Of a DNA stretch of 64,000 nt, positions 15,880 to 28,243 are shown piece after piece; the first letter of the stretch is position 1; each line of letters starts with the position of its first letter. The notes below the pieces were generated by a model. It made no database searches, had not been told where the DNA came from, and saw only the letters and a list, made by a program, of their open reading frames with translations. Origin of the DNA: Longimicrobiales bacterium (lineage in GTDB: Bacteria > Gemmatimonadota > Gemmatimonadetes > Longimicrobiales > Gaopeijiaceae); assembly GCA_965203485.1 (NCBI GenBank), contig OZ241892.1:2400001-2464000 (forward strand), read 5' to 3'. Position numbers and translations under genes: made by a program.

Positions 15880-15932
15880 ATGGCCGTTTTTGACACATCG
15901 CGATTTCCCGTCGTTGCCGTTTCGATAGATGC
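15880..15932 (+). promoter_or_regulatory. Conserved upstream element, copy 1
   Basis: atggccgtttttgacacatcgcgatttcccgtcgttgccgtttcgatagatgc, about 50 bp before the first peptide gene. Confidence 0.75.
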
Positions 15933-15983
15933 GCAAGCCACGAGGGCTCGCGAGTCGCGCGCACCAGACAAGGATAAGTTCCC

Positions 15984-16505
15984 ATGCGGACCATGCTCAA
16001 GCTGACTGCAGCTACGCTCGCCGTCACGGCCGCGATGTTGGCGTTTCCGTTGGCCAACACTTGGTCGTTGGACGCACAGTGCGTCGTTTGCAGCAAGACA
16101 GGCAATTGCGAGGACGGGAGAGGTGGATCGTCCTGCGTATCGGAGATGAACTCCGACGAAGACAAGCGTTGCACAGTCTCGGGGGGTTGCGAATGCACGA
16201 GAGTGGTACGACGCTGGTGGTTCGACACCGTCGTATGCACGCCGACCCTCGCCACTGCGTTGCCCTCTGTCGATGCTCGTCTCGTCGACTACGGTGGAAG
16301 CGAGATGGCGTTGCAACGCGTAGGACCGAGCCATTTCGCGGCAACCCAGTGCGGAGCGAACGACGACTGGGTGCTTCTTGCGCGCGAGTTGCCGGACGGC
16401 GAGTTGGTCGTCACCACGAATCCGATGATCATTCGCCTGCGACGCTGGACGCATGGCCTCGACTTCTCGCGGCAAGCTGACTCCCAAATAGCGACGCAAT
16501 CATGA
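15984..16505 (+). CDS. Secreted protein with an N-terminal 8-Cys domain (peptide A)
   Basis: Signal peptide MLKLTAATLAVTAAMLAFPLA, then CVVC..C..C..C..CEC..C and a ~90-aa C-terminal domain. Stop overlaps the next start (ATGA). Confidence 0.75.
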   Translation: MRTMLKLTAATLAVTAAMLAFPLANTWSLDAQCVVCSKTGNCEDGRGGSSCVSEMNSDEDKRCTVSGGCECTRVVRRWWFDTVVCTPTLATALPSVDARLVDYGGSEMALQRVGPSHFAATQCGANDDWVLLARELPDGELVVTTNPMIIRLRRWTHGLDFSRQADSQIATQS

Positions 16506-17557
16506 ATGTTCCCGCCAAGGCGGCGATGCTTTGCGCGCTGAGTTTGGCGGCGGCCGTTTCCTCGGCCGCCGCCGTCCAGCCGACGGCGCCGCATTCGTTC
16601 CAAGTCGGCGTTCGGGAGATCTGGAGCACCTACGGCGATCCAGGTTGGGGGGAGCCGATGGGCATGTTGCAATGGCCGGACGGCACCGTCTGGGTTGGCG
16701 ACTATCAAGTCTCGGAGGTTTGGGAGCTCTCAGCCGACGGCACAGAGCCGAGACGGGTTCTCCGTGAAGGCGAAGGTCCAGGCGAGCTGACCGGCGTGTC
16801 TTGGATCGTGCCGTATCGGGATGGCGGAGTTGTCGTGATGGATGCTCGGAACTTCCTGTTCTTCGGAGCAGACAAGGGATTCGTTCGGCAAGTGAGATGG
16901 AGCGCTTTCTCCGGAAGAGCCGGCTTGGTGGCAACTCCAAACGGCGATCTGGTCGTCAGCGGGGGCTCGATGCACGAAAACCACGAACTGGCGCACTTCG
17001 CCGTTCACCGCTTCCACAGGAAGCGCGGGTGGCACGTCAAGAGCTGGCACCCGGCCGCCGACCACCGACAGTGGGAAACGATTCGCCTTACGTCCGGCGG
17101 GCCGATCGCCCTTGCGAAGGATGGAGGACTCCTGGTGTCCGAGAAAGCGCCGTTCAGGATCACTCGCTACTCCGACTTGATGGGCAACGGAGCCCAACTT
17201 GTGATCGAGGACGAAGACGTGGTGTCCACATCGGAGCGGGACCGGGTGGTGACGTATACGCCCACCGGCTACAGCGTGACCACCGGTTGGACGCGGTCGA
17301 TCTTCGTCCACGAGATGGAGGGCGGTAACATTCTCAACGTCGTGAAGGTGTGGCCGGAGAATGTCGCCGCGGGCGCGAGCAACGAATGGCTCGTCGTGTC
17401 GCCGGACGGACGCATCTTGGCCCGAACACCCACCGAGAGGTCGTACGATGTCTGGAACGCAACGCCAGACGGCCATTATTTGGCGACGTATTGGGATCGC
17501 GACTCGTCGCAGACGGCGGTGGCCAAGCTGGAAGTGACAGTGGCGCCAAATCCGTGA
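16502..17557 (+). CDS. Secreted 6-bladed beta-propeller protein 1
   Basis: Signal peptide; PDGTVWVGD; REGEGPGEL blade motif; VVSPDGRILA. Confidence 0.75.
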   Translation: MNVPAKAAMLCALSLAAAVSSAAAVQPTAPHSFQVGVREIWSTYGDPGWGEPMGMLQWPDGTVWVGDYQVSEVWELSADGTEPRRVLREGEGPGELTGVSWIVPYRDGGVVVMDARNFLFFGADKGFVRQVRWSAFSGRAGLVATPNGDLVVSGGSMHENHELAHFAVHRFHRKRGWHVKSWHPAADHRQWETIRLTSGGPIALAKDGGLLVSEKAPFRITRYSDLMGNGAQLVIEDEDVVSTSERDRVVTYTPTGYSVTTGWTRSIFVHEMEGGNILNVVKVWPENVAAGASNEWLVVSPDGRILARTPTERSYDVWNATPDGHYLATYWDRDSSQTAVAKLEVTVAPNP

Positions 17558-17694
17558 AGGCTATCCCGTCGTTATTTCCGGTGCTCGAGCAGGCGTTGGT
17601 AGGGCCGGGCGTTTCGCGGAGGCGGCTCTCGGAGCGCTCGCGTGTCGGCCGAATCCGCGCGTTCGCGCCGATGCACGTACCGCAGGGAACTCCG

Positions 17695-17747
17695 ATGGCC
17701 GATTTTGACACATCGCAATCTGCCGTCGTTGCAGTTTCCATTGATGC
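17695..17747 (+). promoter_or_regulatory. Conserved upstream element, copy 2
   Basis: atggccgattttgacacatcgcaatctgccgtcgttgcagtttccattgatgc. Confidence 0.75.
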
Positions 17748-17838
17748 CAAGGCAGTGCGCGGGCTGTCTGCTCACCCTATAGGAGCCGCGAGCGTCCGAC
17801 GGCCTCGCGAGCCATGGACCCGCAAGGGAGACAATCCC

Positions 17839-26238: not shown

Positions 26239-26313
26239 CCCGCTTCGGCAAATTCCGAGAGTGCCGCTGAAGCACGAATGGCATCACAAGTCACAACCAA
26301 TAAGGAACTGGTA

Positions 26314-26592
26314 ATGGTCATTGTTGCTAGAATTCTACCGACGGCTCGGCTTGTCAGCTTGGCAACGGGATTCATCGTTGCGACGCCGATGATGCTGAGT
26401 GATGTCCGAGCGCAACAAGAGGACCCCGAACAAGAAAATGTCGACGCGTGCGAATCCCTTGGTTGCGCCGGCGGCGATCTTGTTTGCGCAGAGTATGACG
26501 AGACAAGAATCGTAATGACGATCGATCTCGGCGATATTGTTATCGAATTCATCGAGACGGAGACAGTCATATGCTACGAGAGTCGCAACTGA
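26314..26592 (+). CDS. Secreted 4-Cys peptide E (paralogue of D)
   Basis: TAAGGA RBS; signal-like region ending VRA; core ACESLGC-x6-C-x28-CYE. Confidence 0.75.
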   Translation: MVIVARILPTARLVSLATGFIVATPMMLSDVRAQQEDPEQENVDACESLGCAGGDLVCAEYDETRIVMTIDLGDIVIEFIETETVICYESRN

Positions 26593-26666
26593 CGGCGTCG
26601 GAGATGCACATGTCGGCAGATGCGATTCCAGTGGCGCCGAATGGCGGCCTGATGAAGAGAGACCCC

Positions 26667-26708
26667 AGGAGAATGGTGACGAAGATGAGGAGAATGATGA
26701 CGAAGATG
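26667..26708 (+). repeat. 21-bp tandem duplication containing RBS and start codon
   Basis: aggagaatggtgacgaagatg / aggagaatgatgacgaagatg. Confidence 0.85.
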
Positions 26709-27767
26709 AACACGTTCCAACATCGGTGGCTACCGGCCGTCATGTTGCTCGCTCGCATCTTGGGTGCGATTTGCGTCCTGGCGGCCGGCGGAGCCGAGGG
26801 CCAAGCCACGCAACGCAATTGGCTTTCGCAACCGGTGCTCGACTTCTCGGTGGAGGACCCAGATGGGACGGTGCTCGGGAACCCGCTTCGCATCACGGCC
26901 AGTCCGGGAGGGGGCTTTGTCGTAAGCGACTGGGCAGACTTCGCCGTCCAAGCGTTCTCGCCTCGGGGCGAGCCGCTCTGGCGGTTCGGAAGGCAGGGCC
27001 GGGGGCCGGGCGAGTTCCTGCAGTTCATGCACATGGAATACGATGGCGACAAGCTACTCGTTCTCGACAACAAGAACAGGAGGCTGACCGTACTGAGTGC
27101 GGACGGCCGCCTCGTGTCCACCCAACGACTGCCGGCCACGCAGATGTCGCAGGTGCTGCCGGCGTTCGGCTCCAGCCGCAGAGTGCTCAGGCCCTTCATA
27201 GGTGGCCGCGACACGCTATGGGTGTCGGTGTCCGAGTCAGGCAGGGTGGCTTCGGCGGCCCCCATGCCGGGCAAAGTCGCTTTTCAGGACGACATCGTGG
27301 GGGAGTCCTTCACGAGCCGGGCCGGCGCCGGTGCCGTTGTCGCCTTTAGATGGTCGAGCCAGCTAGTGCTCTTGGACGAGAGCGGCGGCGTCAGAACCGT
27401 TGCCGAGGGCATCGAGCGCGTGGCGTTCCCCAAGATGAAGAAGTACGAAGTGGATCCCAATATCGAGGGCGTCACAAAGCTCGTAGCCCGGCGGGTGGAC
27501 CCGAAGGCGACACCGGCCGCCCGCTCCGTAGCGGCCGACAGCCGACGAGTGTTCGTTCTCTTTCGCGGCCAGACGGAATACCGAGACAGGATCGTCGACA
27601 CGTACGACGCCCGCCTCGGAGACTATCGAGGCTCCATTCTATTGCCGAACAAGGTCGCCGACATCGCCATGCTGGCGGATGGCCGCCTGGCGACGCTGGA
27701 GACGGACTTCTTCCCCATCGTGCGGGTCTGGCATATCGCGGATGAAACAGCCGGACGGCATCCATGA
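26673..27767 (+). CDS. Secreted 6-bladed beta-propeller protein 4
   Basis: Signal peptide ending AEG; FVVSD..WRFGRQGRGPGEF..LLVLD; IVDTYD..GDYRGS. Start uncertain (several Met). Confidence 0.85.
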   Translation: MVTKMRRMMTKMNTFQHRWLPAVMLLARILGAICVLAAGGAEGQATQRNWLSQPVLDFSVEDPDGTVLGNPLRITASPGGGFVVSDWADFAVQAFSPRGEPLWRFGRQGRGPGEFLQFMHMEYDGDKLLVLDNKNRRLTVLSADGRLVSTQRLPATQMSQVLPAFGSSRRVLRPFIGGRDTLWVSVSESGRVASAAPMPGKVAFQDDIVGESFTSRAGAGAVVAFRWSSQLVLLDESGGVRTVAEGIERVAFPKMKKYEVDPNIEGVTKLVARRVDPKATPAARSVAADSRRVFVLFRGQTEYRDRIVDTYDARLGDYRGSILLPNKVADIAMLADGRLATLETDFFPIVRVWHIADETAGRHP

Positions 27768-28243
27768 ACGGGGCTGAGAATGCCATTCCGATGCGTTCCA
27801 CATCATCTCGTCTCGGCTTGTTCGCCGCGCTGGCTGTCGTCGGGTGCGCCAGCGCCGAGGCTACAAAGAAGCGCGAACTGACTCTGTCGGAAGTTGCGGG
27901 GACCGAGACGGGCATAGTCGTCTTGGCGCATCCGTTCAGTTGCGCTCTGTCGGGGGAAGACGCTCGCCGCTTGAACTTGGCCGGGACAGACGGTCGATTG
28001 GCTGTTCGGGTCTTCTTCCTGGCGTCGTCCGCCGATAGCTTGGCCGTCGAGCGTGCGGCCACCGACTTGGGATTGGAGGTGCCGTACGCGTCGCTGTCCG
28101 CAGAGCGCGCCGCCACTCTCTTCCGGGCCACGGGGATGGGAACGCCCATGTTCGCCCTCATGCGGCACGGTCGTATTGTTGCGATGGTGGGCAACGTTGG
28201 CGCCGACTACGCGCTGGACATCATCGACAGCATCTTGCGTTGA
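27764..28243 (+). CDS. Lipoprotein, possible degenerate thioredoxin fold
   Basis: Lipobox AVVG-C; IVVLAHPFSC; MGTPMFALMRHGRIV (cis-Pro-like). Confidence 0.6.
   Translation: MNGAENAIPMRSTSSRLGLFAALAVVGCASAEATKKRELTLSEVAGTETGIVVLAHPFSCALSGEDARRLNLAGTDGRLAVRVFFLASSADSLAVERAATDLGLEVPYASLSAERAATLFRATGMGTPMFALMRHGRIVAMVGNVGADYALDIIDSILR

Follow-up and report, generated by a model that had tools for sequence, protein, structure and literature searches.

Positions 15880–28243 of a 64,000-nt stretch of DNA from a marine Longimicrobiales bacterium (Gemmatimonadota; contig OZ241892.1, positions 2,400,001–2,464,000 of the forward strand; the whole stretch is called the window below) contain genes for five small exported cysteine-rich proteins (A–E), for beta-propellers (bp1, bp2, bp4 and the propeller part, bp3, of trx-bp3) and for thioredoxin-like (Trx-like) proteins, together with an ECF sigma factor, an AraC-family regulator, a polytopic membrane protein (mem) and four copies of a 53-nt element. 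As stated already in the initial annotation of this DNA, all open reading frames (ORFs) of the locus lie on the + strand. They are bounded by a gene of the SLC13 transporter family on the left and a pair of ClpN-like and DinB genes on the right. Their order is element, A, bp1, element, bp2, trx-bp3, B, a remnant of an ISL3-family insertion sequence (IS), ECF, element, AraC, trx2, C, mem, debris, element, D, E, bp4 and trx3, and they fall into four modules: A with bp1; bp2 with a Trx-like domain, bp3 and B; Trx with C, the membrane protein and ECF; and D/E with bp4 and Trx. Pfam and NCBIfam name the ECF factor, the AraC helix-turn-helix (HTH) region and bp4 (PF17170 above its cut-off), and bp1, bp3 and trx3 weakly. 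The source genome (G000, 95% complete) was compared with two congeners (G001 and G002), with genomes of other genera (G186, G217 and G334) and with contigs matching the locus in four sequencing runs (X1, X5, X9 and X10); L numbers denote extracted loci.

The five small ORFs have hydrophobic N-termini, and it is by this heuristic that they are called exported. On the same basis the earlier description of five precursors with Sec-type leaders in four cysteine frameworks stands; the even cysteine counts ascribed to them do not hold for A, which has nine. Protein A (15984–16505, 173 aa) combines an 8-Cys N-terminal core with a beta-meander C-terminal domain carrying the ninth residue, Cys123, which is invariant in an alignment of 17 sequences, so that the mature protein has an odd number of cysteines; A is a two-part protein rather than a mini-protein. 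Its AF2 model has a mean pLDDT of 52, better in the C-terminal part and below 50 in the Cys core; the best structural match of the C-terminal domain reaches only Z 4.1, and an Atlas search for the fold of A gave no usable match. Homologues of A occur in 6 of 201 family genomes (one of them doubtful), with dN/dS of 0.26–0.54 in three pairs, and in two close relatives the changes concentrate between the cysteines (10/52 vs 1/113, p 4e-5; 7/52 vs 3/113, p 0.012). Protein B (20704–20949, 81 aa, 8 Cys) gives a dN/dS of 0.17 against its G001 homologue and has homologues in 6 of 201 genomes, three of them weak; four B homologues belong to G334. Protein C (23595–23801, 66–68 aa) has the framework CC-x8-CC-xx-CC-W-x4-C-x5-C, the eight cysteines being invariant in 22 sequences and seven of them in a wider set of 24, and pN is below pS in all 21 pairs. 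Matches to it come from 22 of the 201 genomes of the family, which represent 13 of 81 genera, and from 19 of 301 genomes of the phylum, nearly all belonging to its own family; the C family comprises 212 clusters at 50% identity, and the full framework is present in 129 of the best 150. Proteins D (26002–26238, 78 aa) and E (26314–26592, 92 aa, strongly acidic; a start at 26278 is also possible) are a homologous pair with four cysteines each, invariant in five sequences from three genera. None of A–E matched Pfam or NCBIfam. A tryptophan is conserved in the cores of A and C, and the mature cores are neutral to acidic, with charges of −1 to −14 in the window and a median of −4 in the C family, where +3 or more was found in 5 of 129. 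Judged by their homologues in other genera, which conserve the cysteines, A, B, C and D/E are genuine genes; the coding-type conservation that the initial annotation had left to be checked is seen as dN/dS below 1 in A and B and in the pN and pS values of C.

Gene bp1 (16502–17557) encodes an exported NHL-type propeller of the subfamily cognate to A, whose named carriers are Longimicrobiales or Gemmatimonadota metagenome-assembled genomes. The product of bp2 (17839–19050, start codon uncertain), a member of the B module, is divergent and probably a lipoprotein (lipobox-like VLGC); it gave no Pfam or NCBIfam match and its fold is a predicted propeller, with 60% amino acid identity to its G001 counterpart and a homologue in the B operon of G334. 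In trx-bp3 (19061–20701) a putative Trx-like domain with the site CPAS is fused to a propeller matching DUF5128 at E 6e-4. The exported 6-bladed propeller bp4 (26706–27767, start uncertain within 26571–26706) belongs to the subfamily cognate to D/E and scores 27.4 bits against PF17170 (cut-off 22.9), bp3 remaining under the cut-off. The translational coupling or adjacency reported earlier is confirmed: A and bp1 overlap by ATGA, B begins 2 nt past trx-bp3 and C overlaps mem; bp4 and trx3 overlap as well.

The locus is far from unique, as iterated searches found 76 propeller-type ORFs, including fragments, in 41 loci of the source genome. A small secreted ORF with at least four cysteines lies directly upstream of 14 of these 76, against 2 of 400 control genes and none of 76 on the opposite strand (the 14 include an ORF at G000 3169687 that is probably not a peptide); if ATG and a ribosome-binding site are required, the counts become 10/76 and 0/400. 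The adjacency of propellers and peptides thus exceeds chance. At 29 best-hit propeller loci of other genomes an upstream peptide was registered three times and never on the opposite strand, which means that most propellers have none adjoining, and the propeller profile matches 120 of 151 genomes of the phylum. For all 24 peptide-adjacent propellers the nearest labelled relative stands beside the same peptide family; since kin share neighbours, this pairing is evidence of linkage and not of co-evolved binding. A bp1-type gene follows A at 8 of 9 credible sites, the set D/E, bp4 and trx3 was found again in G186 and G217, and the set B, bp2, Trx and bp3 in G001 and G334. The order in G334 is B, bp2, a free Trx-like gene, B, B, bp3, B, so that trx-bp3 of the window is a fusion without the peptides that separate its parts there. 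The modular cassettes of peptide, partner and Trx-fold helper suggested initially are supported at the level of gene sets: homologues of the small ORFs co-occur with propeller and thioredoxin genes in neighbourhoods that recur across genera, with family-specific partners. A complex of A (residues 32–165) and bp1 (26–351) predicted from alignments scored 0.20, the mark being 0.32 and controls not having been folded, and speaks neither for nor against binding.

Of the three thioredoxin-fold proteins or domains of the first inventory, trx2 (in truncated form) and trx3 are supported, and the domain in trx-bp3 weakly so. The product of trx2 (23141–23575) is a membrane-anchored redoxin-type Trx fold with the site CAHG that lacks the C-terminal part typical of its family; this family matches 2m72 (E 1.5e-5), with an AhpC-TSA match in 2 of 5 members. 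The product of trx3 (27764–28243), a probable lipoprotein with a single cysteine (CALS) and a redoxin/TlpA-like fold, lies among redoxin/TlpA clusters by Atlas features (0.93–0.94) and has a weak Redoxin match, its profile having matched no chain of the PDB. For the N-terminal domain of trx-bp3 the evidence is a weak DsbE/CcmG match at E 1–1.6, and the hhalign comparison with trx2 was negative. CxxC is present in none of the three window proteins (CPAS, CAHG, CALS). Homologues of trx3 are likewise single-Cys, and the 17 sites of the trx2 family comprise CxxT (7), CxxS (6), CxxC (3) and CxxG (1); the G334 homologue of the domain fused in trx-bp3 carries CAAC. With such sites the Trx-like proteins of the window are not oxidases of the DsbA/BdbB type, and the oxidative-folding helper proposed earlier, in the sense of a dithiol oxidase, has to be given up (single cysteine in 14 of 17 family sites and in all three window sites). 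Trx folds with one cysteine are able to act as disulfide isomerases or to retain their substrates in mixed disulfides. There is no Trx-like gene near the A module.

The C module typically consists of trx2, a propeller, C, a membrane protein, sometimes a small Cys/His protein, and an ECF gene. In two sets of C loci (n=30 and n=16, one locus being common to both) the membrane protein lies directly downstream of C in 22/30 and 13/16, a trx2-type gene is present in 21/30 and 11/16, a propeller lies directly upstream in 17/30 and 7/16, and an ECF gene is found within 1.5 kb in 16/30 and 10/16. The small Cys/His protein, which gave no Pfam anti-sigma match, we take to be anti-sigma-like by its motif. 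The window gene mem (23794–24981) is this usual downstream partner. Its N-terminal half aligns with LptF in VIA-align at Z 11.5 (rmsd 4.2, 186 residues aligned, model pLDDT 56); the top three rows are all LptF with Z 10.3–11.5, where about 13 is asked of helical bundles, and a positional equivalent of mem matches PF03739 at E 0.003. The model, itself of low confidence, suggests that this half may resemble the LptF/G membrane fold (confidence moderate). Foldseek found no match to mem at E<=0.001, a scan of named genomes gave none either, and an LptF/LptG search of the genome matched only the two canonical genes. The ECF gene (21340–22053, start 21340 or 21463; TIGR02937 E 2.5e-29) and the AraC-type gene (22331–23144) are both present as the initial annotation had it, the latter being interrupted by a frameshift at 23024 in its C-terminal HTH region, where the HTH_18 match spans model positions 1–64 of 80. 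Of the AraC paralogues of the source genome, 7 of 8 lie within 5 kb of a propeller, as do 8 of its 17 ECF matches; such neighbourhoods make up 16% of the genome.

The upstream DNA element shared by several genes was likewise reported correctly. Its four 53-nt copies lie at 15880–15932 (~103 nt upstream of A; a candidate promoter or activator site), at the beginning of 17695–17875 (143 nt before bp2, with a leader stretch that is duplicated at 22076–22260), at 22076–22128 (a homologous copy follows the ECF gene in G002) and at 25899–25951 (about 102 nt before D). Elsewhere in the genome the pattern has a single further match, with 2 mismatches. Other small Cys-rich genes of the genus have a related motif, TGACGAAAAATGACAC, in front of them, often directly after an AraC gene; the core TG[G/A]C-N6-TGACAC is common to this motif and the element. 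The combined motif matrix gave 14 matches in 862 kb of loci against 0–9 for shuffled columns; since most of the 14 are sites used in training or close homologues of such sites, this is no independent test. The 53-nt element is likely to combine a promoter with a site for an activator. Module exchange also appears to use it as homology, its copies coinciding with joints in X9 and X10 contigs. Near-identical 60-nt motifs beginning with TGACGAAAAATGACAC occur in the source genome at 130298, 134156, 139166, 187361, 592210 and 2451216; around the last of them, at window position ~51216, neither propeller nor peptide genes were called.

The whole 12.4-kb stretch is a variable inserted island and a mosaic of four modules, not the single co-regulated system that had been proposed. 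Its left flank (14308–15849, +; PF00939 E 5e-62, SLC13/Na:sulfate symporter family) is kept in the congeners with 88–92% DNA identity, and the ClpN-like gene on the right (28306–28740, −; Clp_N match weak, E 0.0018) is conserved there as well. In G002 the two flanks are only 146 nt apart, which is an empty site; in G001 they hold a different 3-kb cassette opening with a copy of the 53-nt element, and parts of the window locus are scattered over separate places in both congeners. The GC content of the locus is 0.64 vs 0.69 for the genome, a value equally low in 5% of equal-sized windows. Beyond the ClpN-like gene, a 365-aa gene (29303–30400, +) about 90% identical in the congeners adjoins the DinB gene; further on lies a large adenine-methylase-like ORF (31759–35070, −) and GC falls sharply to 0.49 at 35001–36000, probably marking a defence island.

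Runs labelled sponge or marine metagenome carry related copies, in the sponge runs of much of the locus; no RNA run was listed among them. The X1 contigs, possibly derived from the source sample itself, show no difference from the window in the pieces listed. In X5 a contig of 5.2 kb contains, in this order, the end of bp1, the ECF gene, the propeller part of bp3, B, AraC, trx2, C and mem, and skips 156 nt (most of the gene) in B and 77 nt (the core) in C, bp3 and mem remaining covered; the same skip in B with bp3 covered is seen in X9. Parts uncovered in X5, X9 and X10, for instance bp2, were not scored as absent. The extra base at 23024 of AraC is present in window-identical contigs and absent from the X5 relative; an assembly error was considered and rejected, as X1 contigs match the window without a gap. 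The first inventory was incomplete in having missed both the ISL3 remnant (20953–21170, +; a paralogous copy matches HTH_Tnp_ISL3 at E 3e-8) and pseudogene debris (25035–25860, +), in which fragments of a bp4-like propeller and of a second gene similar to mem can be recognised. The repeat of ~220 bp that follows B is the ISL3 remnant; readings of it as an RNA or a recombination site were rejected. Left-end remnants of ISL3 were seen at about ten other places of the source genome, several of them inside propeller loci. No C-type propeller was found in the source genome. A is absent from 11 of 19 bp1-type loci and likewise from the four other such loci of the source genome, and in G001 and G002 signal sequences of the peptide families are fused directly onto propellers. 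Partners, therefore, often outlast deleted peptides. A peptide-type signal joined to a propeller with the Cys core wholly or partly deleted was observed at L018:3793–5061, L014 (~11846), L009 (~12716) and L039:2771.

Related cassettes occur at other places. Two more large stacks, at L040 (G000 128,000–146,000) and L045 (G000 453,000–472,900), are likewise made up of modules with genes for peptide, propeller, Trx, ECF and AraC, and in L045 two ECF genes enclose a C module and a small Cys/His protein. In G217 a module of propeller, C and trx2 is exactly duplicated in tandem (L149:5920–9603). Two paralogous 173-aa secreted Cys-rich proteins of two domains, at L044:3728–4249 and at G000 398519–399040, each precede a propeller and both lie downstream of an ECF gene and a peptidase-MA-like gene. 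A Cx10C-like Cys peptide, a propeller, an ABC ATPase and a permease stand together at L046:2876–5883, L047:4870–7734 and L052:7568–10528. A bacteriocin-like cluster, L051:1153–4848 (G000 ~2,507,000–2,510,900, −), has genes for two small secreted Cys proteins, one of them Ala/Gly-rich and hydrophobic, for a CPYC thioredoxin, a Yip1 protein, an ABC ATPase and a permease.

Based on these data one can propose, as a plausible reading that still falls somewhat short of probable, that A–E are exported, disulfide-bonded, polymorphic ligands with cognate binding propellers, the C module being wired to its ECF factor. The small protein, to judge from its N-terminus, would be exported by Sec and would fold into a disulfide-bonded mini-protein with the help of a family-specific, mostly single-Cys Trx-fold protein acting as isomerase or holdase. 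The family-specific propeller might then bind it outside the cytoplasm, as their strict genetic pairing suggests, and the mini-proteins would most likely act as polymorphic signals of cell-to-cell recognition. Within the C module the signal may be relayed to the adjacent ECF factor by the multi-pass membrane protein, often together with the small Cys/His anti-sigma-like protein, and an AraC-type activator or the ECF factor may drive the modules via the repeated element. Strains that have lost a peptide and kept its partner could still sense or neutralise the peptides of others. This ligand reading is favoured by the fixed link of C with the membrane protein and ECF, by the neutral to acidic cores, by the variable loops of A (in two of four comparisons) and by the kept partners.

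Several observations, taken together, weigh against it. In the two more distant relatives of A the core changes are not in excess (p 1.0 and 0.48). In the source strain the AraC gene, trx2 and the propeller of the C module have suffered damage or loss. The fixed link with membrane protein and ECF is confined to the C module, the regulators being merely often nearby for A, B and D/E, and the fold that best matches mem is that of LptF, a subunit of a transporter, rather than that of a known anti-sigma. The matrix built from the motif of other loci scores all four window copies of the element negative, so that a single shared regulon is not established. Linkage and common descent alone can yield the pairing and co-occurrence. 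Other cassettes of the genome contain ABC ATPase and permease or Yip1 genes, as bacteriocin clusters do, and toxin and immunity account equally well for the orphan partners and the island. The main rival is antagonism: A–E would be bacteriocin-like toxins with disulfide bonds, exported by Sec, against which the cognate propellers would give immunity or which they would sequester, and Trx and membrane proteins would serve as maturation factors. We regard it as possible although rather doubtful. The excess of orphan partners over peptides, the variable island beside IS remnants, the ABC and Yip1 genes of paralogous cassettes and the variable loops of A all suit it, and bacteroidetocin loci require a 5-TM protein and a thiol oxidoreductase (PMC6671954). 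It is at variance with cores that are not cationic, with the absence of any recognised effector fold in A, with the link of C to ECF, which suggests sensing, and with the C39 peptidase search (PF03412), which matched neither the 95%-complete genome nor the locus and did match 7 of 14 controls.

Three other explanations seem improbable to us. The proteins could be effectors by which a sponge symbiont acts on its host, the propellers being their chaperones or carriers. The related copies seen in the sponge-metagenome runs X9 and X10 fit this, and small stable cysteine frameworks suit an extracellular host setting; a propeller profile spread over the phylum and 212 clusters of C mean, however, that the design is not limited to symbionts, which leaves this origin a small chance. 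Periplasmic chelation of metals by metallothionein- or bufferin-like proteins, which redoxin-type partners would hold in the reduced state and an ECF factor would control, is equally hard to favour. The dense anionic Cys cores and the AhpC-TSA/TlpA-like partners fit it, as does the description of bufferins as Sec-exported peptides with 4 or 6 cysteines under ECF/anti-sigma control (PMC11626156), but the numerous unrelated frameworks with family-specific propellers fit simple chelation poorly, and the MNIO family (PF05114) gave no match in the source genome, the control matching in Caulobacter. It is, finally, unlikely that the propeller is a maturing enzyme or export chaperone of the peptide, or that both form a two-subunit enzyme of the methylamine dehydrogenase type. 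Matches of the propeller profile in the PDB do include NHL enzymes, e.g. peptidylglycine amidating lyase at E 1e-12, and the tryptophan of the A and C cores is conserved; these enzyme matches span the first two or three blades only, the best matches being non-enzymes, propellers widely persist without peptides, MauE (PF07291) was matched nowhere in the genome (5 of 14 controls match), and locus proteins gave no MauA-type Pfam match.

The ligand reading can be extended to a wider picture, which we put forward as a rather doubtful conjecture. Gemmatimonadota may use a large polymorphic language of mini-proteins, each with its own six-bladed propeller as a reader and a single-Cys thioredoxin as a folder, some with a new wiring of membrane sensor and ECF; strains would exchange modules at a promoter element common to them, and dozens of orphan readers would be retained for hearing or neutralising neighbours. 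If true, this would be a bacterial counterpart of plant signalling by cysteine-rich peptides and receptors, and would give a function to the huge expansion of DUF5128-type propellers. Six-bladed propellers of this type are strongly expanded, and a cognate peptide would make their function testable. The peptides themselves represent a large pool of disulfide-rich scaffolds without a modifying enzyme or dedicated exporter of the kind targeted by genome mining. The window contributes four adjoining module types, partners specific to each family, and direct indications that modules are exchanged and peptides lost; though its copy is partly decayed and the function is read from gene content, it permits comparison of cognate and non-cognate pairs from a single DNA fragment.

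A search of the literature, with supplements and most subscription papers outside it, found no description of this arrangement. One of the nearest analogues is provided by small NVEALA proteins (PF14055), which presumably stand beside DUF5128/TolB_like six-bladed propellers in Bacteroidota. The likeness consists in a small exported Cys protein adjoining a six-bladed propeller, bp4 passing the PF17170 cut-off; the frameworks are different, and PF14055 was unmatched at E<=0.1 in A–E and 24 members of the C family, a genome-wide search with this profile being uninformative because its controls gave no match. The word NVEALA did not occur in the literature searched, nor was a function for the analogue described there. 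Sublancin 168 is served by dedicated BdbA/BdbB oxidoreductases with CxxC and exported via a peptidase-ABC transporter; it resembles the window in having a thioredoxin-fold protein of its own adjoining the peptide, whereas the window has single-Cys sites and Sec-type leaders. The mau cluster of methylamine dehydrogenase, with a propeller, a small disulfide-rich protein, a Trx fold and a membrane protein, has the same four types of components, the window differing by its many unrelated peptide frameworks. The order of Trx-like and NHL parts in trx-bp3 is that of SOQ1/NHLRC2, with weak profile matches; unlike there, the fusion is recent, its parts being separate genes in G334, and the N-terminal Trx fold is weakly supported. 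Classic enzymes of ribosomal peptide (RiPP) modification and ABC exporters are absent, as initially stated, in so far as radical SAM, LanM, YcaO and ABC families gave no Pfam or NCBIfam match among locus proteins. The C module alone resembles bacteroidetocin loci, where a small peptide gene is accompanied by a membrane protein (5-TM there) and a thiol oxidoreductase; according to PMC6671954 those peptides have a double-glycine leader and a C39-ABC exporter, and their four-gene region is without a propeller or ECF. Bufferins share with the window locus a Sec-type leader (here by the heuristic), a Cys-rich core and a nearby ECF, but are defined by MNIO/DUF2063 modification, and the operons described in the consulted passages of PMC11626156 have no propeller. 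A paper on marine Gemmatimonadota (PMC11651109) does not mention propellers in its consulted passages and has cysteine-rich peptides there only as ranthipeptides. The locus matches no described system among those searched, and what distinguishes it is the conserved, family-specific pairing of peptide and propeller.

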